The position numbers were made by a program, and so were the translations under genes. Source: a virus. Taken from it: 64,000 bases of DNA. Location: positions 1-64,000 of IMG/VR virus record IMGVR_UViG_3300042566_000510. One strand, given 5' to 3'. The notes under the pieces were generated by a model. That model saw nothing but the letters and a program-made list of their open reading frames with translations. It made no database searches and was not told the origin of the DNA. Positions 23,395 through 39,140 of this stretch are shown here, piece by piece. Numbering within the stretch: the stretch's first letter is position 1; every line of letters begins with the position of its first letter.

Positions 23395-26300
23395 ATGGAA
23401 TTCAAACCATCAATCTCACCAGAGCAGTTTGACATGATGCAGGGCGGTGGCCAGCCCACCTCGTCCGCCTCTCCGTCTCAGAAGTATGCCGGAGGATTTG
23501 ACGCTGCTGCGTCATTCACCCTTGGTGAGGAAGGTGGCTACGTCAAAGATGACGCCGGAGCCGGGGAAACAAACTTTGGCATCAACAAGCGGGCAAACCC
23601 AGACGTTGATATCAAGAGCTTGACCGAGTCTGGTGCGCGCGATTTATACAAGACGCGCTACTGGAATCCGATTGGCGGAGATGAGCTTGCAAAGCGCAAT
23701 CCCATTCTTGCAACCATCGCTTTCGACACGGCCATCAACATGGGCCCGACGACCGCCAAGAATTTTTTACGCGCCGCGAATGGAGATCCGGCAAAGGTTC
23801 TCGAGATGCGCGCTGAGCGCTATCGCGATCTGCTTGCAGCCGATCCCAAGAAGTTCGGCAAATACGCAGATGGCTGGCAATCTCGGATGGACAAGCTGTA
23901 TGAGCTTGCAGGGACTCAGCAGCCCGCAGCGCAGCCAACGAATGACTTCAGCGGGGAAGGCTCAACTGCTGGCGGCATCGATTGGAACGCCAAAGAAAAG
24001 GGCTTCGTTGATCGCGCGTCCGAGGGGTTTAAGCGCGGCTTTGATCAGTCCATTGGCTTAGGCCAAGCGGCTGCAGCATTGGTGAACCGCACAGTCACTG
24101 GTGAAAAGTACAACGAGTTTCAGGATGAAATGTTGCAGGCGGCAGGCAAGCGCATGCAGCCAGAGGGCAGCGCACCTACGCCTCAATTCAGCGACGTCGT
24201 TTCCGGCGGCGCGAACTTTAAAGATTGGCTTGCCGACTCGGTAGGCTACCTTGGATACCAGGCCGTTGAGATGGCGGCCTCGTTCGGTATCGGTGGACTC
24301 ATCGGTAAAAACATTGCCAAAGGCGCCGTCAAAGAGGTCGCCGAGGGCATGATTGAGAAAGAGGTCGCTCGACTCGCCGCCACCGACGCAGCCAAAACTC
24401 TCAGCAAGGATGAGATCGGAGCGCTCGCGGTCAAGAACGTCGCCGGCGAGATTGCTGGCAGCATGGCCACATTTGCAAACAATCTGCGCCAAACGTCTGG
24501 CGGCGTCTACATGGAGGCGCTGGACAATGAGGCGAAGACCGGCAAGCCAGCCGACTTAACCAATGCATGGGTCGGATCAATTGGATCAGCACTGGTTGAC
24601 ACCGCTGCTGACATTGCTGGCGCTCGAGGCATCTTAGGTAAAGCTGGTAGCGGAAACGCCACGTTTTTGGGCCGCGCTGCAACGCAAGTTCCGCGTCAGA
24701 TGGGGATTCAAGGCGGTACGGAGTACCTGCAAAGCAACATCGAAAACGCGGCAGCAGGCACAGACCCGTTCACCGAGAAGGCTCAGATTCAGGCGTTGAA
24801 CGAGGGCGCTGTAGGCGCACTTGGTGGCGTCTTTCCAGGTCTTGGGGAGGCTCGCGTTCAACGCGCTACAAACCCTTTGCAGTCAGTCATCGACCATGCC
24901 GAAAAGCCTGGCAGCGTGCTCTCGCGTGCTGTGGTTTCTACCGGCGTTACCGATCAGGCTGCAGCAGCGGCCGCATCAGAAGCCCTGCCTCCCGCGGCTG
25001 ACGACCTCGTGCAACGCGTGCGCGACGTCGAAGCCGGCATGCGCAATGGCCCCGTGCTCGACAACTTGCGTGACGACGGCGTTGACACCCGTGAGCTCCT
25101 CAATGACATGCAGCTTGCCCGTCGCACGGACGCGCCACGCGTTGCCCGTGAGGCTGCCCTCGAGCGCATCGAGACGGCGATCCACTTTGCAAACCAGGAC
25201 GCGCAACCGCGTGCGCCGCTGGACTCGATCCAGAGCAACCCCGCTTTCGACTTCACTCAACAAGAGCAGGTTGAGCCGCAACAAATCCCTGACTTGTCAG
25301 CAGTATCGACCGCGCTGCGTGACCCGAATCTGCGCAACACCATTTCTGACGAAGATCGCGACCAACTGCTGTATTTGTACAACATCGCCGGAAATAGCAA
25401 GGGTGATACCGTCGTGCGCACAAATGCCGCACGTCAAGCGCTCGAGATCGTCGGCCGCTATCAAACCCCTGTCGGCACGCCAGGCAGCACAACGCCCGCA
25501 TTGGAGCAGGCTGCGCAAGCGGGTGCTGCTATTGCTACGCCTGCTGAGCAACAAACTGTTGCCGCAGAACCCAAAGAGTTGGACTTCCTGCAGGCCGTGC
25601 CCGAGCCAAAGGTCGGCATCCCTGCCGGCGAAGGTCCGGCCTTTCTGCGTAAGCGCGCTGCTGTAGTCAAGCAACTGGTCGACAACGGCTTTGAGACCGT
25701 CCAGCGCGACAGCAAAGACTTCTACCTCACCAACACCAAGACCGGCCAAAAGTTCAAGCTCGACGGCTCAGCCGATGCTCAGCTCGCTCGCAAGGCGATC
25801 AAGGATCGAGTCGACGCGCTCGCTGCAACCAACGAGAAGAATCCGTCTCAAGCCAAGATCAACGCCAACAACTACAAGAAGTCCGACGTCATCGACTTGA
25901 ACGGCATGAAGATCAAGATCGAGAACGAGCGTGGCGACATCCGCCGCGGCGTCGGTCCTGATGGAACGCCGTGGGAAACAAAGATGGCTCACCACTACGG
26001 TGAGTTCCAGGGAACGATCGGCGCAGACGGCGACAAGCTCGACGTCTTTATTGGCCAACGCCCTGACAGCAACAAGGTGTACGTGGTCGACCAGGTCAAT
26101 CAGGACGGCTCATTCGACGAGCACAAGGTCATGATGGGCTTCACCTCGAAAGAGGATGCCAGCTCCGGCTATCTGGCCAACTACGAAAAGGGCTGGACCG
26201 GCCTTGGCGCCATCACCGAAATGAGCGTCGACGAGTTCAAGACCTGGGCCAAGTCACGCGCTGCCAAGAAGCCCGCCTCCAGCGTGCTCGAGAACGCCGC

Positions 26301-29300
26301 GGCCGCAGGCCAAGATCAATTCACCGAAGAAGAGAAGGCCGAGGAGAAGAGCGGCAAGTTCTTCTACGTCAATGACGGCGAGAAGCAGCACAAGCTCAAG
26401 ATCATCAAGCCCGGCGAGCTTTCCAAGAAGCCAAGCGCCGAGCGCCCCGGCAATCGTCGCCCTCTGACGCAGGCTGATGCCGCACTCATCGAGAAGGTCG
26501 CTGCACTTCTGGGCAAGAACGTCGTGTTCTTTGAGGCTCAAGAGGGCCGCCTCTCTGACGGCTTCGTACGCCCCGGCCAACCCGACACTATCTACGTTGC
26601 CACCGAGACCACGGTCAATCCGCTGGCAATCTTTGGTCACGAGTTCTTTCACACCCTGCGCGAGACCAATCCCAAAGCCTGGGACGCCGTCGCTGCCGTG
26701 GTGGGCACCAAGGTCACCGCCGCCAAGCGCTTCCGCAAGGACCGCTACGGCAAGAAGGTTGCCGACGCAAAGGGCGACGCCGCACTCAGCACTGAGGTTG
26801 GTGGCGAGCTCGAGGAGCTGGTGTCTGACCTGGGCGGCAACCTCCTAAAGGACTCCAAGTTCTGGAAAGAAGTCTTTGCCAAGATCGAAGCTGACAACGG
26901 CGCCGAAGCCAAAGGCATCATCGCCAAGCTGTCGGCCGCCATCCAGAGCGCGATCACTCGCATCGTCAAGGCGATCAACCAGCCAGGCTACCGCGCTGAC
27001 AGCTTCGTCAAGGATCTCGATCAAGTACGCGCTGCGTTCGTGGACGCAATGGCTGCGCACCTCAAGAATGGCGACGTCGAAAAGATGGCCGCCACCGCGA
27101 ACCAGAAGATCAAGAAGTCCGAAGATCGCGACGGCCTCACTGTCGAGGGCTATCACTTCAGCAAGGCGCCTCGCACCGTCTTGACCACCGCCATGTTTGG
27201 CACCGGCCTCAAGGGCAGCGCTCGCGAAGACATCAAGAACAACCCAGACCAGCGCCTGCGCCAGCGCCTGTCTTTCTACTTCGACAAAGGCACCGGCATC
27301 AATCCGGAAGCTGGCGTTGGCAGCATTGCCCACAAGGCAACTCTCACCAACATCTACGACGCCGATGCAGATCCGTTGCGCCTGCGTACGGGCGATGCAC
27401 GCGCGTTCGAGTCCAAGGTTCTGGATAACGGCTACAGCGGCTACCTCCAGCGCATGCAAGGCACGCAGTCCGGCCAGGTCATCTTGCTGGGCAAGCAGAC
27501 CGTCAAGCCCGAGATTCTCGGCGCTGTTGGCAAGATCACCAACGCCGAAGTGGTGCCAGCTCCCAAGCAGCGCGCCGCTGATGTTGGCGACCAGATCATG
27601 GCCAACAAAGATCTGCCAGCGGGCGCACTGACGCCGACGCAATGGTCAGAAGCGCTGATGCAGAAGATGCCCGAAGTGGCAGCACAGCTGATGGACATCG
27701 GCGCCTTCGAGGGCAACGACTCCATGTACAAGGATGAGCTTGTCGCCAAGGCGCGCCAGCTCTCCAGCCAGATCAAGAAGTCTGCCGATCGCGCACGCGA
27801 CGAGTACGCCGAAGTCGAAGCCAAATACAAAGGCACCGACGAATGGCTGAAGGCGCCCAACGGCGAGAGCACCAACCTCAGCGAGCGCCAGTGGATCCAA
27901 GTCCGCACGCCTTCATTCAAGAAGTGGTTCGGCGACTGGGAGAAGTTTGCCGGCATGCAAGGCGGCGTTTGGAATGACGCCAAGAACGAAGTCTCCAAGG
28001 CTGTCGACAAGAACGGTGAGCCGCTGGTCGTCTACCACGGCACCAACAAAGGCGGCTTCTCTGAGTTCAACACGCCCGGCGGAGAGAAGCGCGGAGATCT
28101 TGGGATTTTTACCACGCCTAACCTGGAGATGGCGCAGACCTACTACAGCCGTCGAGGCGGAGAAATCGATCTCTCCGACAAGGACCAAGGCGATCTCGAG
28201 GATATCGGCTACCAATTCAAGCCAGGCTTTATCGTCAAAGGAAGCGATGTTGGCTTCTTTGATAGCAAAGAACAATTGCTCGAAGAGGTTGAACTCGATC
28301 CCGGCGAAGAGATTGTCGAGGCATGGGATGTCACCGATCCAAACGGCTACAACGTAGACGGGCCGCGTGATCACTCGTACTACTTTGAATCGCTTGCCGA
28401 CGCCGTTGGCACAGTAAACCTAAATATGGCGCAAGAGTCGACGAAAGAGTCTGGCTATTACGCCCTGTTCGCCAACATCCGCAATCCATCCGAGAGCGAC
28501 TTTGAGGGCGCCAACTGGGAAGGTTCACGCGAAGGTCAGTACAACGTCATCAATCAAGACGGCGAGCAGGTCTACGACAAAGACGGTAAAGGTGTCTTCA
28601 ACTCCTATGACGAAGCCCAGGAGGTGCAGTTCGCCAACCCCGGAACTACGGTCGAAGGCGCGGCCGATCACTACGAAACCACCGATGACGTGGTTTTGAA
28701 TGCAAAGCGCTACGGCAACGACGGCGCTTACATGCAGAACGTCGTGGACGCAGGCCCAGGTGGCGGCGCGTACATCGACGAGCCATCCGATATCTTCGTT
28801 GCGCTCGATCCATCTCAACTCAAGTCTGCCAACTACAACAGCGGCGAGTTCAGCGTTGACAGCAGCGATTTGCGCTTCTCGAAAGACCGCCTCACGCGCG
28901 AAGATCCGTTCGAGATGTCGACGCGCATCCCAACAGCCAAAGGCAAAGTGGTCGAGGACCATGCCGGAGATCTCCTGATCTCCGACTTTGCCGCCGGTCA
29001 GAAGCAGGAGAAGTGGGTCAACTCGGTGGCCAACCTGGTCGCGCAGTACCCCAACTATCGCGAAGCAGACAGCGCCAAGACGCCAGCCAAGAAGCTCGAG
29101 CGCCTTGTCCGCCATATGGTTGAGAACCTCGTCTGGTTGCACAACCAAGTGCCGGCCGAGACTCGCCAACGCAGCAAGCTGTGGTACGACGGCGCCAACC
29201 GAATTGCCGAGCGCATGTCTCGCAAGTACGAGCTGACGCCAGCGCAATCGTCCGGCATCCTCGCCGTGCTAAGCCCGCAAAAAGACTGGTTCATGAACGT

Positions 29301-31140
29301 GAGCCTGGGCGAGCGCGTTGCCTCGATCATGGCTGAGCGCCAGAACTTCCAATGGTCCAAGGACATGGATGCCACGGCCAACCGCATCTATGGTGCGGCC
29401 AAGTACCAGGAAGACGTTGACGCCATCCGCGGCAAGTCCCTATCCGACCTGGACGGCAAAGCATACCTGCAAGCCATGTGGGTGCGCACGTACGACCAAG
29501 CTCACAACTCGAGCTCGTTCAACATCGTGTCACCCGAAGGTGATTCGCTGGCGATCGCCAAGGCCAAGACCGGCAACCCGGTCAAGGTGGCATGGGGCGG
29601 CAACAGCACCATTGCCAAGGCCATCTCGATCTTCAACGACGGCTCTGCAAGCAACATCAGCGAGCAGTTGGGCACCAAGCACAAGGTGCGCAACTTCTTC
29701 AACAACATCCTGGTGCCAAAGAGCAAGAACGGCCACGTCACGATCGACACGCACGCCGTCGCTGCTGCGCTGCTGCGACCTCTGTCCGGCAACTCGCTCG
29801 AGGTGATGCAAAACTTTGGCGGCACCTCGAACGCCATCAGTGGTCTACAGGGCACCTATGCTCTGTACGAAGAGGCCTACCGCCGCGCGGCCGAAGAGCT
29901 TGGCCTTCTGCCTCGCGAGCTGCAATCAATCACCTGGGAGGCTGTCCGCGGCCTGTATACCCCGGGCTTTAAGTCACAGTCGAAAAATGTTGACGCTGTT
30001 GATAAAATATGGAATCAGTACAAGAAAGGACGACTGAGCTATGACGGAGCAAAAGAATGGGCACTCGAAACTGCGGGAGGAATTGAGCCTCCTAGCTGGC
30101 TCGGACGCGACCCTGGCGCATATGTTGAAGACGAATCGTCCATTGAGCCTGGAGACGTATCTGGAGATGGAGTATCCGGAAGGGATTCCGAAGACGCTTT
30201 CATCCGAGCAGTGGGCGATGATTCCGGAGCCGCTGAAGAGAGCATCCGACAATCAGGAGACCGAGAAGGACGGGATGAAAGCGGAGGCATTGCGCCGCTT
30301 GCAGGTGCGCCAACTGTTCAAGGCGCGTCCGGGCCAGACCCGCGGCTCGTCCAAGTAGCAAACAAGTACGCCAGCGACAACGGCATCACACTCCGCCGCC
30401 AGGCAGAGTACGTTGAGGTTGACCCCGAGCGCGCAGCTCGGATCGCGGCCGCCTACGAGGCTATGCCGCACGCCCCGCAAGACCGCAAGGTCAAAGCAGC
30501 ATTTGCCAACCTGATCCGCCAGACGCGCGCTCAGTACGACGCGCTGGTTGATGCAGGCTACAAGTTCACGTTCTTCGACTCGAAGAGCGACCCCTACGGC
30601 GGCAACCCATGGAACGCCATGCGTGACCTGCGCGAGAACCAGCGCATGGCCGTGTACGGCACCTATGACGGCTACGGCACCGAAGGTGTGACCAAGAGCA
30701 AGGTCGACGACAACCCAATGCTGGCCGACACCGGCCTTGAGTGGGAAGACCAGAACGGCAAGCTTCATCCAGTGCTGGCCAACGACCTGTTCCGTGCCGT
30801 GCATGATGCTTTCGGTCACGGCCTTGAGGGCACCGGCTTCCGCGCTCGCGGAGAAGAGAATGCGTGGCAGGCTCATATCCGTATGTTCACCGGCTCTGCC
30901 AAAGCTGCGATCACCACAGAAACGCGTGGCCAAAACAGCTGGCTGAACTACGGCCCGTACGGTGAAAAGAACCGCGTCGCCAAAGTTGAAGACACAGTCT
31001 TCGCCGAACAGAAGACTGGCCTGATGCCTGAGTGGACTTGGTCTGAAGGGTTGGCTGAAGACATGCCGACCAAAGACGAGCCCACTTACAATCAGCGCGT
31101 CAACGCCCTCAAAGATTTGATCTCCTGCCTGAAGAAATAA
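23395..31140 (+). CDS. Large polyvalent (ejection) protein 1: GH108-type muramidase, inorganic pyrophosphatase, HExxH peptidase, ART-like domains, HhH DNA-glycosylase-like domain, C-terminal HDxxGH domain
   Basis: 2581 aa; EEGGY..GETNFGI; YG..GT.GADGDKLDVF..DEHKVM; GHEFFH..EE; YHFS; PLVVYHGT; HKVRNF..VTIDTH; FRAVHDAFGH..GEENAW. Confidence 0.85.
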   Translation: MEFKPSISPEQFDMMQGGGQPTSSASPSQKYAGGFDAAASFTLGEEGGYVKDDAGAGETNFGINKRANPDVDIKSLTESGARDLYKTRYWNPIGGDELAKRNPILATIAFDTAINMGPTTAKNFLRAANGDPAKVLEMRAERYRDLLAADPKKFGKYADGWQSRMDKLYELAGTQQPAAQPTNDFSGEGSTAGGIDWNAKEKGFVDRASEGFKRGFDQSIGLGQAAAALVNRTVTGEKYNEFQDEMLQAAGKRMQPEGSAPTPQFSDVVSGGANFKDWLADSVGYLGYQAVEMAASFGIGGLIGKNIAKGAVKEVAEGMIEKEVARLAATDAAKTLSKDEIGALAVKNVAGEIAGSMATFANNLRQTSGGVYMEALDNEAKTGKPADLTNAWVGSIGSALVDTAADIAGARGILGKAGSGNATFLGRAATQVPRQMGIQGGTEYLQSNIENAAAGTDPFTEKAQIQALNEGAVGALGGVFPGLGEARVQRATNPLQSVIDHAEKPGSVLSRAVVSTGVTDQAAAAAASEALPPAADDLVQRVRDVEAGMRNGPVLDNLRDDGVDTRELLNDMQLARRTDAPRVAREAALERIETAIHFANQDAQPRAPLDSIQSNPAFDFTQQEQVEPQQIPDLSAVSTALRDPNLRNTISDEDRDQLLYLYNIAGNSKGDTVVRTNAARQALEIVGRYQTPVGTPGSTTPALEQAAQAGAAIATPAEQQTVAAEPKELDFLQAVPEPKVGIPAGEGPAFLRKRAAVVKQLVDNGFETVQRDSKDFYLTNTKTGQKFKLDGSADAQLARKAIKDRVDALAATNEKNPSQAKINANNYKKSDVIDLNGMKIKIENERGDIRRGVGPDGTPWETKMAHHYGEFQGTIGADGDKLDVFIGQRPDSNKVYVVDQVNQDGSFDEHKVMMGFTSKEDASSGYLANYEKGWTGLGAITEMSVDEFKTWAKSRAAKKPASSVLENAAAAGQDQFTEEEKAEEKSGKFFYVNDGEKQHKLKIIKPGELSKKPSAERPGNRRPLTQADAALIEKVAALLGKNVVFFEAQEGRLSDGFVRPGQPDTIYVATETTVNPLAIFGHEFFHTLRETNPKAWDAVAAVVGTKVTAAKRFRKDRYGKKVADAKGDAALSTEVGGELEELVSDLGGNLLKDSKFWKEVFAKIEADNGAEAKGIIAKLSAAIQSAITRIVKAINQPGYRADSFVKDLDQVRAAFVDAMAAHLKNGDVEKMAATANQKIKKSEDRDGLTVEGYHFSKAPRTVLTTAMFGTGLKGSAREDIKNNPDQRLRQRLSFYFDKGTGINPEAGVGSIAHKATLTNIYDADADPLRLRTGDARAFESKVLDNGYSGYLQRMQGTQSGQVILLGKQTVKPEILGAVGKITNAEVVPAPKQRAADVGDQIMANKDLPAGALTPTQWSEALMQKMPEVAAQLMDIGAFEGNDSMYKDELVAKARQLSSQIKKSADRARDEYAEVEAKYKGTDEWLKAPNGESTNLSERQWIQVRTPSFKKWFGDWEKFAGMQGGVWNDAKNEVSKAVDKNGEPLVVYHGTNKGGFSEFNTPGGEKRGDLGIFTTPNLEMAQTYYSRRGGEIDLSDKDQGDLEDIGYQFKPGFIVKGSDVGFFDSKEQLLEEVELDPGEEIVEAWDVTDPNGYNVDGPRDHSYYFESLADAVGTVNLNMAQESTKESGYYALFANIRNPSESDFEGANWEGSREGQYNVINQDGEQVYDKDGKGVFNSYDEAQEVQFANPGTTVEGAADHYETTDDVVLNAKRYGNDGAYMQNVVDAGPGGGAYIDEPSDIFVALDPSQLKSANYNSGEFSVDSSDLRFSKDRLTREDPFEMSTRIPTAKGKVVEDHAGDLLISDFAAGQKQEKWVNSVANLVAQYPNYREADSAKTPAKKLERLVRHMVENLVWLHNQVPAETRQRSKLWYDGANRIAERMSRKYELTPAQSSGILAVLSPQKDWFMNVSLGERVASIMAERQNFQWSKDMDATANRIYGAAKYQEDVDAIRGKSLSDLDGKAYLQAMWVRTYDQAHNSSSFNIVSPEGDSLAIAKAKTGNPVKVAWGGNSTIAKAISIFNDGSASNISEQLGTKHKVRNFFNNILVPKSKNGHVTIDTHAVAAALLRPLSGNSLEVMQNFGGTSNAISGLQGTYALYEEAYRRAAEELGLLPRELQSITWEAVRGLYTPGFKSQSKNVDAVDKIWNQYKKGRLSYDGAKEWALETAGGIEPPSWLGRDPGAYVEDESSIEPGDVSGDGVSGRDSEDAFIRAVGDDSGAAEESIRQSGDREGRDESGGIAPLAGAPTVQGASGPDPRLVQVANKYASDNGITLRRQAEYVEVDPERAARIAAAYEAMPHAPQDRKVKAAFANLIRQTRAQYDALVDAGYKFTFFDSKSDPYGGNPWNAMRDLRENQRMAVYGTYDGYGTEGVTKSKVDDNPMLADTGLEWEDQNGKLHPVLANDLFRAVHDAFGHGLEGTGFRARGEENAWQAHIRMFTGSAKAAITTETRGQNSWLNYGPYGEKNRVAKVEDTVFAEQKTGLMPEWTWSEGLAEDMPTKDEPTYNQRVNALKDLISCLKK
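30041..30358 (+). CDS. Overprinted small ORF nested in polyvalent protein 1 (putative inhibitor/immunity protein)
   Basis: AAAGGA RBS 10 nt before ATG; G/C third positions move into this frame; host frame is a low-complexity linker; globular-looking core PLSLETYLEMEYPEGIP. Confidence 0.6.
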   Translation: MTEQKNGHSKLREELSLLAGSDATLAHMLKTNRPLSLETYLEMEYPEGIPKTLSSEQWAMIPEPLKRASDNQETEKDGMKAEALRRLQVRQLFKARPGQTRGSSK

Positions 31141-31146
31141 AGAACC

Positions 31147-34100
31147 ATGGCCCAATTCTCAAACTGCCTCCAGATCGTCAACAACATGCCTGAGCGCGAC
31201 CAGGAGGCTCTGCTGAGTCGACTGGATCAGCTCCAAGCTCAAGGCCTGTCAGCCAAGGAGGCGCAGCTTCAGGCGGCCATTGACGTGCTGGCGCAGGTTG
31301 AGCGCGAGGGTCAAGTTCGCAAAAGCGCAGACCGCACCTGGAGCGGGGACGGGTATCGAGCCCTGAACTACAACCCGCCAAAGAATGCAACGGTTGCCGA
31401 TGTAGTCCGATACGAAAGCGAAGAGCTTGGCAATGCAGACATTGGAGAGATGGCCGATGAGTCCGCCAATCAGCTCGGCATTGACCTTTCTGCGATCCCA
31501 GCGTCCGATGCGATCTGGGTGACGCACACCGTAGAGCAGGCAATGCAGTACGGCGAGCGCTCAGACATTGATAAATACCCCGTCAACGGCTGGCTGATCC
31601 TGGCCGACCTTGGCGACGAGGGCGCGCTACTCCTAAATCCCAAGCATGCTCAAGGCATCCTCAAGTCCGTCGACCGCCCTCAGTTCTACAGCCAGCTTCA
31701 GCGCTCAATTGAGCAAGTGCCCGAGCGCCTGGCAACCATGGCTGCGCCAGCATGGAAGCAGTGGCTCACGGCCAACGCCTCTAAGCTCGGCATCAAGGCC
31801 GACGAGCTCGAGTGGTCCGGCATCAAGGACTACCTGGACCTGCAGGGCAAGGCCAAGCTCAATAAGGCTGATCTCTCCTCCTACCTCGACGACAGTGGCG
31901 TCAAGATCTCCGAGGTACAGCTTGACGATGCTGATGCCAAGCGTTCGCGAGCAGACAAGGAGGCTGCAGCAAACAAACTTACGCGAGCCACCTTGGAGCT
32001 CCGCGAAGCTACGCCAAACATTCGTCAGCTGGATGGCGCCAACCTCACCGGATGGGCCGAAGATGCCTATGCCGGCGATGAATTTGCACAGCGGAAGATC
32101 CAAGCACTTAGCCTGGATGACAACGCCATGGCTGCAGTGCGTGAATATGGCCGCGTCGCAGCCGAATTTAACGAGGTTCATAACACTCGCAATTCACCGG
32201 CAACCAAGTACGGCCAGTACACCCTGCCAGGTGGTGAGAACTACCGCGAGGTGCTGATCACGCTGCCGGTAACGCCAAAAGATGGCGCCACCATTCAGCA
32301 GGCGTCATCTGGTTTCTGGCGTGTCACATTCAAAAATGGCGACACGGCAATGTTCAAGACGGAGTCGGAGGCTCGCGCAGCGGCTGGCGGAAGCGATGCG
32401 TACACATCAAGTCACTGGGACCAGAAGAACATCCTTGCCCACATCCGCGTCAACGACCGAGTCGCACAAGAGCCTGGCTTCATTGTGCGCAACACCCGCT
32501 CCGGCAACCGCAGCGAAGTGTTTGCAACCCGCGAGCAAGCTGAGGACTACCAAGCCAAGATGCCTGCGTCCTTGAAGACGGAAATCGTTGAGCAGCCTCG
32601 CGAAGTAAAAGTTCTCTTCGTGGAAGAAGTTCAATCGGACTGGGGCCAAGAAGGTAAGAAGAAAGGGTTCGCCGGCCAGAATGGCGCGCCTTTGTCTGAG
32701 CAGGAATACAAGCGCGCTGCCGAGCTGCAAAAGCGTGACCGCCTTGGCGGCGAGCCCTTGAGCGCCACTGAGCGCGCAGAGTTTGACGCGCTGATGGCCC
32801 GTCACACGCGAGCTCATGAGGGACTGATGGTTCCCAACGCCCCCTTCGTCACCAAGACCGAAGGCTGGCTCAACCTCGCGCTCAAGCGCATCGCCATGAT
32901 GGCCGTCGAGGGTGGCTACGACAAGGTGGCTTTCGTCAACGGCGAGCAGTCGGCTGACCGCTACAGCCTGGAAAAGCAAGTCGATGAGCTTTCCTACGAG
33001 CCAACAGCCAAGGGCTACTACATCAACGTGATGGCCAGCGGTCGCAACATCAAGAGTGGCGACTTCACGAAGAGCGAGCTCGAGGACATTGTCGGCAAAG
33101 AGATTGTCCAAAAGATGGACGCTCGCGAAGGCAAGGTCGAGGGCACGCCAGGGGCTCCGGACTACGAAGATTTGAAGGATATTCGCACTCTGAGTGGCGA
33201 CGGTCTCAAAGTCGGCGGTGAAGGCATGAAGACCTTCTACGACAAGCTCGTGCCACAGGCTCTCAACAAGCTGCTGCCTAAGCTGGGCGGTGAGAAGCTG
33301 GGCGCCGTCGAGATCGACGTGCAAGGAACCGGCCTGCAGACTCGGTACGAGTACCAAGGCCCAGAGCTCAAGCGATCCGAGATCGATGCAATTGCAAGGT
33401 CAGGCGATTTCTCTGTATCGATTGAGCGTCAGTTGCGCGAAATCGGTAGCTTTGTGGAAGTCGGAGTGCCCATGGCGGAGGCGGTGCAAAAGTATGGCTC
33501 CATCTCTGCGGCTGAAGCGCTCGGCGGCAAGCTGGTGCCAATGAAGAATGCGATGTCCGCGCAACCAGGCTTCGACGTCACAGACAAGATGCGCGAGACC
33601 GTGTCTGCCGGTGTGCCGCTTTTCAGCCGTGATCGCCAGACAGAGACGCCTGAGTTTAAGAAGTGGTTTGGCGACAGTAAGGTGGTGGATGCTGAGGGTA
33701 AGCCGCTGGTGGTTTATCACGGGACTGGCGGCGACTTCGATTCATTCGATGCCGCTCGCTCGGGCCAGAACTACGCTCGACGTGGCGGAGAAAAAGGCTT
33801 CTTCTTCACGAACAGGCCAATTCCCGCTGGCGTGTACGCCGAACAGGCGAGCGGAGCCTTCTTTGGTGACGAAGAGAACCCTCGCTTCGGCGACGGTACG
33901 GCCAACATCATGCCGGTGTACCTGTCGCTGCAGAATCCCTACGTCCGCAAAGCGACCGGCTCTCCTGACAAATGGTTCGATTCAAACCACAGCGCCTTGC
34001 TGGCTGCCGCCGAAAAAGCTGGCGCTGACGGCATCATTGTTAATGGCGGCAAAGGATTTGAGATCCGCAGCGTTTACATCGCATTCAGCCCCACCCAAAT

Positions 34101-36909
34101 TAAATCCGCCACAGGCAACAACGGCCAGTTCGACGCGACCAACCCAGACATCCGCAAGTCTGCCGACCGCCCTTGGTTCGACGACCTGAGTAAGCTTAAG
34201 GTCACAACCAACTACCAGCTCGGCGACTTGCTGAAGACCAGCAAGAAGCTGTCTTGGTGGGATCGCACCATCGGCACACAGTACAACCTGGCGCAGAAGC
34301 ACCCGCAGTTCAAGCGCGTGTTCGACGCTGTGCAGCGCTTCATCAACGACGTGTCGCTCTACGCCACCCGTGCTGCCGACCTGGCGCCAACCTGGCTGCC
34401 AAAACTGGATGGCATTTCGGACATCAACCCGTTCAGCAAGAATTTCAAGCGCCCAGTTTCCGCGGAGGACGTCAAGGCTTTGCGTGACCCCATCTTTGGC
34501 GGCACGCTCAAGTACACCCGCGACGAAAACGGAGAGCTGATCGAGTCGGATGATGTGTCCACTGCAGGCGTGGTGTTCACCAACGAAGAGCTGCGCACAA
34601 ACTTCGGCTTGAACGATCGCCAGATCGGCCTGTACCGCGAGTTCCGCAAGTCGGTCAACAAGAGCATTTCAGACTTGGCCGTATCGGATTCGCTGCGCTA
34701 CCTCGGTAAAGATGGCGAAGGCGTGCGCCAGCGAGCGCTTGACGCCGCCAATCTGGATGACGCACTAAATGCCATGGTTGCTCACCTTGATCAGTTGATC
34801 GCTCAGCAGCCGGAGCGCGCAGAGGTACTTGAAGATAGTAAGCGCGTCATCAAAGAGAAGGCGGGCCAGGCCATCGGCGCAATGTCACGCGGTTACGCAC
34901 CTTTGTCTCGCTTTGGTGAGTACACGGTCTACGCTACCGGCGAAGGGCTCGAGGAACCCATCTTCTTCATGTTCGAGAATGAGCGCGATGCAAACGTGCG
35001 TGCTCGCGAATTACAACGCGAATTCCCAGACGCCAACATTGAGCAAGGAACGATGAGCCAAGAGAGCTACAAGCTCTTTAGCGGCGTGACGCCAGAATCG
35101 CTTGCCCTGTTTGGCGAGGCTCTTGGGCTCGAGGAGTCCGGCGCCGACACCAAGTCGCAGGCATTCCAGATGATGCTGAAGATGGCCAAGGGAAACCGGT
35201 CCGCCATGAAGCGCATGATTGAGCGTAAGGGTATTGAGGGCTTCAGCGAAGATGCTGGTCGCGTGCTGGCTGGCTTCGTGTACAGCAATGCGCGTCAGAT
35301 CTCGACCAACCTGCATGCCGGAGAAATCGCACGCAGTGTCCAAGAAATCGATCAGCGAAATGGCGACGTTAAGGACCAAGCTGTCCGTTTGATGGAATAC
35401 GTGCAGAACCCACGCGAAGAGGCTCAAGCCTTACGCGGCCTGATGTTTACGCAGTTCATCGGTGGCTCTATCGCTTCGGCCATAGTCAACATGACTCAGC
35501 CGTTCACCATGACCCTGCCTTACCTGAGTCAGTTCGACGGCGCCACCGGTGCCGCCTCTCGCATGGCCGACGCAGTGAAGCTGGCCTCTCGCGGCATTCG
35601 CAATGACGACGACCTCAAGGCTGCACTCAAGCGCGGAGAGGATCTCGGGATTGTTAGTCCGCAGGAAGTGCATCAGCTCATGGCTCAGGCTCAAGGCAAG
35701 GGCAAGCTGCAAACCGGCGACGGCACCAAGATGGGCGACGCTGCGGCCAAGGTGAACAACGGCCTAGCCAAGCTTGGTCTGGCGTGGGGCAAGGTGTTCT
35801 CGGCTGCCGAACAGTTCAACCGTCGCGTGACCTTCATCGCTGCCTACAAGCTGGCTCGCGACCAAGGCATGGCCGATCCAATGGCTTTCGCTGAGAAGGC
35901 CATCGCTGAGACGCAAGGCGTGTACAACAAAGGCAACAAGCCAAACTGGGCTCGCGGCGCAGTGGGCGGCACCTTGTTCACGTTCAAGCAGTATTCAATC
36001 GGCTACCTCGAGTTCTTGCGCCGCATGTGGGGTAACGGACCAGAGGGCAAGAAGGCCGTCGGCCTCGCGCTTGGCGTGTTGTTCCTCATGTCTGGCTTGG
36101 GCGGCATGCCTGGCTCCGACGATCTGGATGACGTCATCGACGGCTTCATGCAGCGCGTGCTCGGCCGTAGCTTTGACAGCAAGCAAGCGAAGAAAGAGTT
36201 CTTCGCCAGCATCCTGGGTCAATCCGGCGCTGAGTTTGTGATGAGCGGACTGTCTGGCTTGCCAGGCATGCCAATCGACTTCTCCGGTCGCACGGGTCTA
36301 GGCAACATAGCTCCAGGCACTGGCATCTTCACCAAGAAGCGCGACTACGCCCAGGACTACAAAGAGGTGCTTGGCCCTGTCGGCACGCTGGCAACAAATG
36401 CAGGATCTTTCCTGGCAAACTTTGCGGCCGGCGAGTTCGGCAAGGCTGCGGAATCGGTTGCGCCGGTTGCTGCGCAGAACGTCATCAAGGCAATCGACAT
36501 GGCGCAGATGGGCTTCTATCGCGATGCTAAGGGCCGCAAGGTCATTGACACAACGCTGAGCGAAGCCATCCTCAAGGGTGCAGGCTTCCAGCCACGTTCG
36601 GTCAGTCAGATCCAGCAAGCCACCGGCGAGCAGCAGGGTCTCATCGCGCAGAACCGTTTGGCATGGCAGGAGATCCGTGATCTCGCTGTTGCCGGTCGCG
36701 TCGAGAAGGATGAGGCCAAGCTTGCAGAGGCGCGCCGTCGCTTTGGCCAGTGGAATCGCAACAACCCTGACAGCCCAATCCGCTGGAATCAAGAGTCCAT
36801 CAACAGCGGCGTCAAAGAAGCCAACAAGCCAAAGGCTGAGCGCATCGCTGATGCTGCGCCCAAGCAGATCCGCGGCACAGTCAAGCGAGAACTTGAGAAG
36901 GCCGACTGA
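31147..36909 (+). CDS. Large polyvalent protein 2: EExQSDW domain, ART-PolyVal-like domain, PLxRFG domain, C-terminal helical (LPD38-like) region
   Basis: 1920 aa; LFVEEVQSDWGQ; PLVVYHGT..GFFFT..PVYL..NP..DGII..F.PTQIKS; YAPLSRFGEY. Confidence 0.85.
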   Translation: MAQFSNCLQIVNNMPERDQEALLSRLDQLQAQGLSAKEAQLQAAIDVLAQVEREGQVRKSADRTWSGDGYRALNYNPPKNATVADVVRYESEELGNADIGEMADESANQLGIDLSAIPASDAIWVTHTVEQAMQYGERSDIDKYPVNGWLILADLGDEGALLLNPKHAQGILKSVDRPQFYSQLQRSIEQVPERLATMAAPAWKQWLTANASKLGIKADELEWSGIKDYLDLQGKAKLNKADLSSYLDDSGVKISEVQLDDADAKRSRADKEAAANKLTRATLELREATPNIRQLDGANLTGWAEDAYAGDEFAQRKIQALSLDDNAMAAVREYGRVAAEFNEVHNTRNSPATKYGQYTLPGGENYREVLITLPVTPKDGATIQQASSGFWRVTFKNGDTAMFKTESEARAAAGGSDAYTSSHWDQKNILAHIRVNDRVAQEPGFIVRNTRSGNRSEVFATREQAEDYQAKMPASLKTEIVEQPREVKVLFVEEVQSDWGQEGKKKGFAGQNGAPLSEQEYKRAAELQKRDRLGGEPLSATERAEFDALMARHTRAHEGLMVPNAPFVTKTEGWLNLALKRIAMMAVEGGYDKVAFVNGEQSADRYSLEKQVDELSYEPTAKGYYINVMASGRNIKSGDFTKSELEDIVGKEIVQKMDAREGKVEGTPGAPDYEDLKDIRTLSGDGLKVGGEGMKTFYDKLVPQALNKLLPKLGGEKLGAVEIDVQGTGLQTRYEYQGPELKRSEIDAIARSGDFSVSIERQLREIGSFVEVGVPMAEAVQKYGSISAAEALGGKLVPMKNAMSAQPGFDVTDKMRETVSAGVPLFSRDRQTETPEFKKWFGDSKVVDAEGKPLVVYHGTGGDFDSFDAARSGQNYARRGGEKGFFFTNRPIPAGVYAEQASGAFFGDEENPRFGDGTANIMPVYLSLQNPYVRKATGSPDKWFDSNHSALLAAAEKAGADGIIVNGGKGFEIRSVYIAFSPTQIKSATGNNGQFDATNPDIRKSADRPWFDDLSKLKVTTNYQLGDLLKTSKKLSWWDRTIGTQYNLAQKHPQFKRVFDAVQRFINDVSLYATRAADLAPTWLPKLDGISDINPFSKNFKRPVSAEDVKALRDPIFGGTLKYTRDENGELIESDDVSTAGVVFTNEELRTNFGLNDRQIGLYREFRKSVNKSISDLAVSDSLRYLGKDGEGVRQRALDAANLDDALNAMVAHLDQLIAQQPERAEVLEDSKRVIKEKAGQAIGAMSRGYAPLSRFGEYTVYATGEGLEEPIFFMFENERDANVRARELQREFPDANIEQGTMSQESYKLFSGVTPESLALFGEALGLEESGADTKSQAFQMMLKMAKGNRSAMKRMIERKGIEGFSEDAGRVLAGFVYSNARQISTNLHAGEIARSVQEIDQRNGDVKDQAVRLMEYVQNPREEAQALRGLMFTQFIGGSIASAIVNMTQPFTMTLPYLSQFDGATGAASRMADAVKLASRGIRNDDDLKAALKRGEDLGIVSPQEVHQLMAQAQGKGKLQTGDGTKMGDAAAKVNNGLAKLGLAWGKVFSAAEQFNRRVTFIAAYKLARDQGMADPMAFAEKAIAETQGVYNKGNKPNWARGAVGGTLFTFKQYSIGYLEFLRRMWGNGPEGKKAVGLALGVLFLMSGLGGMPGSDDLDDVIDGFMQRVLGRSFDSKQAKKEFFASILGQSGAEFVMSGLSGLPGMPIDFSGRTGLGNIAPGTGIFTKKRDYAQDYKEVLGPVGTLATNAGSFLANFAAGEFGKAAESVAPVAAQNVIKAIDMAQMGFYRDAKGRKVIDTTLSEAILKGAGFQPRSVSQIQQATGEQQGLIAQNRLAWQEIRDLAVAGRVEKDEAKLAEARRRFGQWNRNNPDSPIRWNQESINSGVKEANKPKAERIADAAPKQIRGTVKRELEKAD

Positions 36910-37990: not shown

Positions 37991-38000
37991 GAGGGTGGCC

Positions 38001-39140
38001 ATGGGCGTCCGTCAGACCCCGAGCGGGAAGTTCGAGCTGCGCATCACGCACCGTCTGTTGCCGAAGGCGGTGTACCTCACCTTCAACAACGAAGACGCTG
38101 CCAACGCGTACGGCGCGCAAGCACGCGAGCTCCTCGACTCTGGTGTTGTGCCGGCCGGACTGGTCGATGAGAAGAAGGTGCCAACGCAAACGCTGCACTC
38201 AGTGATCCGCGCATGGCAGGCGCACGGTCAACTCTCCACGGCTGATGACGAGATCCTCGACGTGCTGACGGGAGAGATCGGCAAGACCAAGCTGTCCGAG
38301 TTCACGTACGCCTGGTGCGAGCAATGGGTGCGCGATATGAAGCTCAAGGCCAACCTGGCGCCCGGCACCATCCGTAAGCGCATCGGCGCCCTCGCCCGCT
38401 GCGTTGACTGGGAACTCAGGAAGACGCCGGACCTGCTGGTCGGCAACCCCTTGCGCTCACTTCCGCGCGGATCAGCCACCTACAGCGCCAAGGATGCAGC
38501 GGAAGCGAAGAAGCTGGGCAAGAAGGTGCGGCAGGACGCAGTGCGTGATCGGCGCCTGCACAGTGGCGAGCATGAGCGAATCATGAAAGCGCTGGCCGGC
38601 GAAAAGCGAGAGGACCGTCAGCGGCCGCTCGAGCCCGATGAAGACCTGCGCGACCTGTACCTACTGATCTTGCATACAGGTATTCGACTGCGCGAGGCGT
38701 ACACCATTAAGCGTGAACAGGCCGGCGAACGCGTGCTGCGCATCAGCAGCTCGAAACAGTGGCACGGGCGGGAAGCCTGGCGCGATGTGCCCATGGTCAA
38801 AGAGATCCGTCAGATGATGGCCCGTCGTGCCGCTAAATCAAAGCCAGGAGCGCTTGTTTTCCCTTGGTGGGACGGAGACCCCCAAGAGCTCGACAAGGTC
38901 ACCACGCGGCTCTCTCGTCGCTTTGGCTTGCTGTTCAACTACGCAGGTTGCGTAGACTTGACTGAGCACGACTTGCGTCACGAGGCGACGTGCCGTTGGT
39001 TTGAGATGCGCGACAAGAGGGGTGGCTGGCTTTTCCGCGAAGCTGAGATCGAGAAGATCATGGGCTGGGCGCCGGACAGCTCAATGGCCAAGCGCTACGC
39101 ATCATTCCGAGCTGAAGACCTAGCCGAGCGTCTTGACTGA
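38001..39140 (+). CDS. int: Tyrosine integrase
   Basis: Catalytic set TGIRLRE, HDLRH, MGW, KRYA; LAPGTI core-binding motif. Confidence 0.92.
   Translation: MGVRQTPSGKFELRITHRLLPKAVYLTFNNEDAANAYGAQARELLDSGVVPAGLVDEKKVPTQTLHSVIRAWQAHGQLSTADDEILDVLTGEIGKTKLSEFTYAWCEQWVRDMKLKANLAPGTIRKRIGALARCVDWELRKTPDLLVGNPLRSLPRGSATYSAKDAAEAKKLGKKVRQDAVRDRRLHSGEHERIMKALAGEKREDRQRPLEPDEDLRDLYLLILHTGIRLREAYTIKREQAGERVLRISSSKQWHGREAWRDVPMVKEIRQMMARRAAKSKPGALVFPWWDGDPQELDKVTTRLSRRFGLLFNYAGCVDLTEHDLRHEATCRWFEMRDKRGGWLFREAEIEKIMGWAPDSSMAKRYASFRAEDLAERLD

Follow-up and report, generated by a model that had tools for sequence, protein, structure and literature searches.

A repeated junction heptad as a candidate processing signal in two giant phage polyvalent proteins

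The stretch considered here, referred to as the window, is the first 64 kb of IMG/VR record IMGVR_UViG_3300042566_000510, a complete 77,491-bp genome of an uncultured phage with direct terminal repeats. It encodes two giant proteins, P0001 (2581 amino acids) and P0002 (1920 amino acids), that by their domain content are polyvalent proteins as described by Iyer, Burroughs, Anand, de Souza and Aravind in 2017, i.e., polypeptides of a phage or conjugative element carrying two to 15 functionally diverse effector domains (PMC5512222). A heptad with an S-x-x-R core recurs at the junctions between the domains of both proteins, downstream of a zincin-like HExxH...E domain embedded in P0001. The heptad is a concrete but unproven candidate cleavage signal identified from sequence, and we think it somewhat more probable than even that the copies are processing sites for the built-in peptidase. 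What is new is the defined junction motif only. Peptidase processing of polyvalent proteins has been published before as a hypothesis, in which autoprocessing by a zincin-like metallopeptidase (MPTase) was proposed and no cleavage site or junction motif was named (PMC5512222). An incomplete search of the literature turned up no cleavage site defined for this group of proteins.

Among the anti-defence cargo of phages and plasmids, polyvalent proteins rank with the largest and commonest, and the zincin-processing proposal has been left standing since 2017 because no substrate site was known. The heptad turns that standing hypothesis into specific, cheap experiments. It supplies exact peptides (e.g., GQVRKSADRTW and NPDIRKSADRPW) and point mutants for direct assay, it predicts mature products from sequence alone (five per protein here) along with working cassette boundaries for unnamed domains, and it offers a handle on whether any cutting would take place inside the capsid or within the host.

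The junction heptad

An earlier sequence-only reading of this DNA had proposed eight S-x-D-R linkers at effector-domain boundaries and had flagged a ninth match, GEQSADR (32941-32961), as lying inside a domain. Translation of both open reading frames (ORFs) returns all nine exactly where that reading had placed them. Copies were scored with a 9-column position-specific scoring matrix (PSSM) trained on the proteins P0001-P0064, with a fixed threshold for copy counts. The two genes, the predicted peptidase domain and the eight junction copies are as follows.

23395..31140, + strand: giant polyvalent protein 1, a probable virion protein (P0001, 2581 aa); a single ORF with Pfam and PHROG matches
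31147..36909, + strand: giant polyvalent protein 2, a probable virion protein (P0002, 1920 aa); an ORF with no peptidase domain
26392..27075, + strand: predicted zincin-like peptidase domain, P0001 residues ~1000-1227; HEFFH at 26638-26652 and Glu1141 at 26815-26817
27109..27129, + strand: junction motif 1, IKKSEDR, at the border of the peptidase and cassette d2; PSSM 18.3; junction conserved in relatives
27772..27792, + strand: junction motif 2, IKKSADR; PSSM 21.1; in a 28-sequence alignment Ser is at least 90% conserved and Arg invariant
28870..28890, + strand: junction motif 3, LRFSKDR; PSSM 18.9; relatives have DLRKSxDR or DIRFSAER there
30244..30264, + strand: junction motif 4, IRQSGDR, in an acidic Gly-rich linker; PSSM 14.4; relatives have IR[RAK]S..R
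31315..31335, + strand: junction motif 5, VRKSADR, after a 56-aa leader; dozens of partner proteins also have Ser at residue 60
31657..31677, + strand: junction motif 6, ILKSVDR, directly before the central domain; S174 and R177 at least 90% conserved
33616..33636, + strand: junction motif 7, PLFSRDR; F826 invariant, S827 and R830 at least 90% conserved; the alignment with F116 gp60 begins here
34150..34170, + strand: junction motif 8, IRKSADR; PSSM 25.2; most phage homologues align only from residue 1014

The motif is well above chance. S.DR occurs nine times in P0001 and P0002, where 1.05 would be expected, and 5000 shuffles never gave as many, which rules out a chance origin. Six-frame translation of the window, with ORFs of 150 aa or more, holds only one further S.DR. 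Across the whole 77.5-kb genome, motif scores of at least 14 are confined to the two giant ORFs, and the portal, capsid and scaffold-position proteins have no motif with a PSSM score of at least 7 and no S.DR.

The same holds beyond the window. Proteins with the same peptidase carry 3.83 copies each (82 proteins), and P0002-like partners outside the training set carry 2.91 (112 proteins, some with up to nine copies), compared with 0.06-0.08 in shuffles. In 125 further representatives of the peptidase family, taken from clusters at 50% identity, there were 204 matches against about nine expected. The copy count falls with divergence of the peptidase, and lineages have typical variants such as DITRSxxR, DIRFSxxR and DIRYSxxR.

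The larger set redefines the motif. The matrix gives a consensus of D-[IVL]-[RKT]-[KRF]-S-x-[DE]-R, in which Ser and Arg contribute about 4 bits each and are nearly invariant. In 34 aligned close homologues the same junctions read [IVL]-[RK]-[KRFAQ]-S-x-x-R, with Asp often replaced by Glu, Gly, Ala or Pro. The Ser and Arg core of the S-x-D-R proposed earlier stands; its Asp is only preferred, and that definition was too narrow. A better core is hydrophobic-[RKT]-[KRF]-S-x-x-R.

Conservation had also been placed at the level of the protein, on the grounds that codons differ between copies. Serine in the motif is encoded by TCC, TCT, TCG, TCA and AGC. Pairs of identical motif residues, taken from the window and related loci, use the same codon 62.6% of the time, where codon usage predicts 51.8% (ratio 1.21), and conservation therefore acts on the protein. 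A DNA-level repeat is ruled out by this codon use.

Placement of the copies relative to folded domains was read from AlphaFold 2 (AF2) models of P0002 residues 1-1100 and P0001 residues 1000-1480, with boundaries taken from the predicted local distance difference test (pLDDT). All six motifs within these models (two of the four in P0001 and all four in P0002) lie in low-confidence stretches between folded domains. In P0002, pLDDT falls below 50 at residues 52-114, 116-181, 827-830 and 990-1049, and the linkers are at 57-63, 171-177, 824-830 and 1002-1008; PLFSRDR (824-830) has only its C-terminal end, to R830, inside the stretch at 827-830. Folded domains of P0002 start or stop within a few residues of the linkers, and the fold resumes at residue 182 after motif 6. 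In P0001, linker 1 (model residues 240-246) is in the sole long low-confidence stretch (228-245, pLDDT below 50), and linker 2 has a pLDDT of about 53 (model residues 461-470) within a long, weakly supported helix. For P0001 linkers 3 and 4, the boundary position comes from Pfam domain limits and alignment. Taken together, the heptads lie between domains, as had been claimed, and the extra SADR was rightly set apart: GEQSADR (residues 599-605) is a helix in a confident domain (block pLDDT 91 and 80) in which G599 and Q601 are invariant.

Alignments and architectures give the same picture of the junctions. Phage homologues of P0002 start aligning at residue 826-831 or 1014, just past two of the motifs. 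In the relatives P0025, P0029 and P0031, an extra domain is inserted at a junction with a motif copy on both sides, which bears out the suggestion that the motif brackets exchangeable cassettes. The order along P0001 is also as first described, with the first motif right after the zincin domain (HEFFH from 26638) and none upstream in the 2581-aa protein. A copy, [GD]AKFSTxR, does precede the peptidase by about 35 residues in more distant relatives. A simpler account, that the motif is the mere C-terminal tail of the ART-PolyVal domain, was considered and rejected. For five of the eight copies, the preceding module is a different one (the peptidase, DUF7178, the leader, the 114-aa cassette and the central domain), and the motif is therefore not simply an ADP-ribosyltransferase (ART) tail.

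Cassettes bordered by a motif copy on each side, highly mosaic architectures and the slight excess of same-codon use would also be expected if the heptad were a cassette-shuffling joint, i.e., a short sequence at module ends that favors recombination and has no biochemical reader. We regard this as very improbable. Codons differ widely, with Ser drawn from both the TCN and AGC families, and 21 nt of imperfect identity make a poor recombination substrate. Ser and Arg stay nearly invariant while their neighbors drift together within a protein, and there are equally mosaic lineages without the motif.

The putative peptidase and its association with the motif

The HExxH...E signature and the predicted topology point to a gluzincin-type metallopeptidase in P0001. 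HEFFH (residues 1082-1086) is on a predicted helix (79-92 in the AF2 model), and E1141, which is invariant and may be the third zinc ligand, is on another (139-145). The AF2 topology runs helix, strands, HExxH helix and Glu-bearing helix. Iyer et al. describe the same topology for the zincin-like MPTase, with HExxH and a downstream Glu (PMC5512222). Numbered from residue 1000, G57, H83, E84, H87 and E142 are invariant in a diverse alignment (A5), and D56, D146, G149, F157 and W158 are invariant too among closer sequences (A1/A2). The H-E-H-E set is retained in 195 of 196 family domains, and by its residues the peptidase looks active. Natural dead-peptidase variants, in which decay of the motif could be seen, were sought in the family and none was found. 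No other HExxH is present in any credible long ORF of the genome, which is complete, and a hidden Markov model of the peptidase had no match in P0002. Outside phages, two scans of bacterial genomes found the peptidase in one Burkholderiaceae metagenome-assembled genome contig, and the protein database lists a relative, P0062, from a related prophage of Polynucleobacter sp. UK-Kesae-W10.

The motif follows this peptidase in several ways. For one, it occurs 1.45 times per 1000 aa on the downstream side of the peptidase and 0.18 times on the upstream side. Second, motif matches average 0.04 in 45 proteins without this peptidase whose cassette d2 is 54-60% identical; in them d2 has unrelated flanking linkers, and another HExxH domain, TFLHE[ST]GHFF, is present. 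Third, the copies within one protein vary in concert. They agree with each other at positions +1 and +2 at rates of 0.28 and 0.36, against 0.17 and 0.15 when permuted, while the control position +4 gives 0.105 against 0.090. This concerted variation fits a single co-evolving reader. The phages F116, 8P and USP25 have other HExxH domains (HELQH, HEM[IT]H) and no multi-copy motif, with isolated single matches only, and the Y7 protein has neither a detectable HExxH nor a multi-copy motif.

A common reader need not be a protease. The heptad could be an uncleaved junction element with another reader, such as a signal for docking or for loading into the capsid, a hinge or pause point as unfolded chains are threaded through the tail, or a modification site (ADP-ribosylation of Ser or Arg by the ART cassettes, or phosphorylation at the basic-basic-Ser core). 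Any such reader would give a motif that is exposed, conserved and concerted within proteins, and every motif-bearing protein also has ART-PolyVal domains. It is in keeping with this alternative that the N4 virion RNA polymerase (vRNAP) and plasmid polyvalent proteins remain full length (PMC5512222; PMC13492108). On the other hand, ART-PolyVal is also found in the 45 motif-free proteins, and the presence of ART is therefore no predictor of the motif, whereas the peptidase is. There is no reason for a packaging signal to be 8-fold denser downstream of a peptidase, and the class of the junction follows the class of HExxH across loci. With these points on each side, an uncleaved element is unlikely, though it is the alternative to which we give the most weight.

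Whether the linker consensus covaries with the peptidase clade, a check that the sequence-only reading had proposed, was examined in 80 IMG/VR loci anchored on the central domain of P0002 with 10-kb flanks. Peptidases were classed by HExxH context and junctions by the peptide flanking the central domain; some loci are incomplete at the flanks, so that "no peptidase seen" does not equal absence. With the window-type peptidase, the junction is of the SxxR type in 8 of 12 loci (3 of 48 others). The HFF/HLR-type HExxH goes with a Gln-type junction (ILFQG, MFEQAP) in 15 of 15 (5 of 45 others), and an LRHE-type peptidase goes with an SLR-type junction (FSLRDKLG) in 6 of 7 (0 of 53 others). On a FastTree tree of the central domain, which has many long branches, these classes are interleaved, and of about nine independent pairs on supported branches, the predicted direction is taken by about 6.5 and the opposite one by about 0.1. 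The covariation thus has the predicted direction in the 80 loci, with few phylogenetically independent contrasts. The Gln-type and SLR-type peptides are known from the two flanks of one domain only, which leaves SxxR as the one class with a demonstrated multi-copy code.

More closely inspected, [KF]SLRDKLG pairs with an LRHE[AS][IV]HAL peptidase, and MFEQAP, ILFQG and MLYQS pair with TFLHE[ST]GHFF-like or HE[LM]IHLR domains. The loci with such other peptides are L013, L017, L034, L037, L040, L042, L044, L054, L058, L060, L065, L072-L074 and L080. Plain [LM]FSR also occurs at these two central-domain junctions.

Proposed processing and known systems

If the heptads are processing sites, the HExxH...E peptidase in P0001 would recognize and cut the exposed heptad at each junction downstream of itself. 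P0001 would be cut in cis or between copies, and P0002 would be cut in trans. The expected products of P0001 would be a lysozyme-InPase-peptidase piece and four cassettes (ART-fold, ART-PolyVal, DUF7178 and the C-terminal module). Those of P0002 would be the 56-aa leader, the 114-aa cassette, the 650-aa central domain, ART-PolyVal and the PLxRFG region. That the peptidase is active, that this domain reads the motif, which bond is scissile and whether cutting would come in the capsid or after injection are all inferred only.

Several observations weigh against such processing. In the domain itself, residues 1001-1245 match no Pfam family even at E values up to 1 and no NCBIfam model. Foldseek returned weak rows only (anthrax lethal factor at E 0.5-0.7, PprI at E 0.7), two VIA searches were dominated by matches to a helical hairpin and to the second domain, and a PDB profile search gave matches at E 0.2-1.7 to HExxH stretches of matrix metalloproteinases only. 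The alignments behind the AF2 models are shallow (28 and 35 sequences). By tblastn, the peptidase is absent from 50,697 GenBank phage records, i.e., from every cultured phage there. The motif is also missing upstream of the peptidase, in that positions 23395-26391 encode the lysozyme, a long Ala/Gly-rich region and InPase, followed by the peptidase, without a copy between them. Distant peptidases of the same family (E 1e-12 to 1e-21) come without the motif, and the confinement of the other peptides to two flanks belongs here as well. Descent confounds the co-occurrence, as only four switches of peptidase state are seen on the tree of d2 and about six on that of the central domain, and no individual sign test on these trees attains 0.05. 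Finally, while P1 DdrB is processed, N4 vRNAP, ArdC and TraC1 have related domains and yet are delivered full length (PMC5512222; PMC13492108).

The nearest precedent is the polyvalent group of Iyer et al. itself. As there, many effector domains share one, probably virion-delivered, chain with an embedded HExxH...E domain. In contrast to that set, the peptidase here is missed by Pfam models, and the junctions are marked by a defined heptad that goes with a single clade of peptidase.

The nearest cultured relatives are the F116-like Pseudomonas phages. F116 gp59/gp60, 8P, USP25 and Pseudoalteromonas Y7 share only the C-terminal half with ART-PolyVal and PLxRFG, at 38-44% identity. Their genes are at the same genome position, after the genes for ejection proteins and, in F116, 8P and USP25, also before the lysis genes. 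Unlike here, the homologous junctions in F116, 8P and USP25 read ILFSRS, IRFSRS or IRYSQS.

By analogy of function, the closest working analogues are the head-maturation sites of T4, phiKZ and SPN3US and the polyproteins of RNA viruses. Head-maturation proteases cut at short consensus sites, L/I-x-E for T4 gp21 and S/A/G-x-E for phiKZ gp175, as likewise for the SPN3US prohead protease. The likeness is in a short consensus in virion-packaged proteins and in the removal of an N-terminal targeting peptide, which parallels the 56-aa leader and motif of P0002; this layout resembles the removable capsid-targeting peptide of T4 internal proteins. The differences are that no prohead protease was found here, that capsid, portal and scaffold-position proteins are without the motif, that the zincin is inside its proposed substrate, and that the consensus is another one.

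This precedent also gives substance to a rival, that the heptad is a cleavage site for a different protease, either a host enzyme (periplasmic or cytoplasmic) or an unrecognized phage or head-maturation protease. Cutting of injected proteins by head-maturation proteases at short consensus sites is established, the zincin assignment comes without fold-level confirmation, and several phage genes here are without known function. Yet PHROG and Pfam searches of the complete genome, in which several ORFs have no assigned function, revealed no prohead or head-maturation protease, and the portal, capsid, scaffold-position and other virion proteins carry no motif. The motif is also absent from related phages without this peptidase clade, despite common cassettes and probably similar hosts, and lineage-specific concerted variants suit a co-inherited phage reader over a conserved host enzyme. 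We consider a different protease improbable.

RNA-virus polyproteins share the logic proposed for the built-in peptidase, in which a single chain contains its own protease, a consensus recurs at the junctions, and cleavage proceeds both in cis and in trans. Picornavirus 3C cuts at Q-G, and flavivirus NS3 cuts after dibasic residues before a small residue. The basic-basic-Ser core resembles the flaviviral sites in form, by analogy only. The enzymes differ (a predicted metallopeptidase here, Ser or Cys enzymes there), as do the roles (effector delivery versus replication proteins), and the viruses are unrelated.

Polymorphic toxins offer a third comparison. Their demarcation motifs, VENN in CdiA and PxxxxDPxGL in Rhs, are conserved with the flanking DNA. 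Like the heptad, they are short conserved borders of exchangeable modules. In the toxins there is one border before a C-terminal toxin, whereas here there are up to nine copies per protein, the codons are not conserved, and the motif is linked to a peptidase.

A broader reading would make polyvalent proteins true polyproteins with peptidase-specific junction codes, in which each HExxH clade has its own linker, cassettes are swappable and release after injection is programmed. The candidate codes would be hydrophobic-R-K-S-x-x-R here, hydrophobic-F/Y-(x)-Q-small for a second clade and F/K-S-L-R-D-K-L-G for a third. We hold this generalization to be possible but doubtful. If the codes are in fact peptidase specific, this would explain how the proteins can be mosaic yet functional.

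Genome setting and cassettes

The + strand carries genes for the portal, a 386-aa scaffold-position protein, the major capsid protein, tail, internal-virion proteins and tail fibre, and then the two giant ORFs; the terminase genes are outside the window, further along the complete record. The giant genes thus come after those for the portal, capsid, tail and internal virion proteins, all on one strand, an order from which both products are probably packaged in the virion and injected. A tyrosine integrase (37995-39140, Pfam Phage_integrase) is encoded directly after the giant genes, and the phage is therefore probably temperate. A megablast of the region against the 50,697 GenBank phage records gave nothing.

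The two ORFs together hold GH108, InPase, ART-PolyVal (twice), DUF7178, the ART-fold d2 and PLxRFG. In P0001 the Pfam matches are the lysozyme family GH108 at 41-117, the pyrophosphatase InPase at 820-953, ART-PolyVal from 1538 and DUF7178 at 2071-2185, and the PHROG matches are to DarB-like and minor head proteins. P0002 has ART-PolyVal at 848-995 (Pfam) and the PLxRFG domain at 1249-1908 (NCBIfam). The stretches between the junctions are as follows.

27130..27780, + strand: cassette d2 (P0001 residues 1246-1462), with an ADP-ribosyltransferase-like fold
27793..28869, + strand: ART-PolyVal cassette of P0001 (Pfam PF18760, E 2.3e-15)
28891..30243, + strand: DUF7178 cassette (Pfam PF23802, E 3.2e-28)
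30265..31137, + strand: C-terminal cassette of P0001; phrog_3170 match at 2462-2522, tail ...LISCLKK kept in alignments A1/A2
31678..33615, + strand: conserved central domain of P0002, ~650 aa; no Pfam match; contains the non-linker GEQSADR (32941-32961)
33637..34149, + strand: ART-PolyVal cassette of P0002 (Pfam PF18760, E 7.8e-26)
34171..36906, + strand: C-terminal PLxRFG (ejection-protein-like) region (NCBIfam NF032893, E 3.6e-175)

Cassette d2, which begins GLTVEGYH, matches no Pfam family. Its structural matches in VIA-align are MbcT (6fkg_B, Z 7.0, 125 aligned) and NatT (8qnl_C, Z 6.8), and it also resembles ParT and diphtheria toxin at Z of about 5. The PLxRFG region is 44% identical to gp60 of Pseudomonas phage F116. 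Near the C terminus of P0002, QIRGTVKRE (36862-36888) has Gly-Thr where the motif has x-Ser; many PLxRFG proteins have a motif-fitting EIR[QDE]SVKRE about 10 residues from the C terminus, which may be a real site or a mere resemblance.

Relatives of the central domain are encoded in at least 569 IMG/VR stretches. Its strongly conserved blocks include GGENYRE, SSHW..PNVLAHIRVNDR, VEE.QSDWGQEGKKKGF and KVGGEGMKTFYD. Upstream of it, the first 56 residues of P0002 form a conserved helical leader that is followed by the motif (31147-31335 with the motif).

The facing ends of the two giant proteins are kept as well. Both the tail of P0001 (31117-31137, ...LISCLKK) and the start of P0002 (31147-31185, MAQFSNCLQIV) are retained in the alignment consensus of relatives (A1/A2 and A3, respectively). 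In the relative P0059 a motif, ARFSRDR, precedes the tail peptide. The tail of P0001 and the start of P0002 each hold the sole Cys of that protein.

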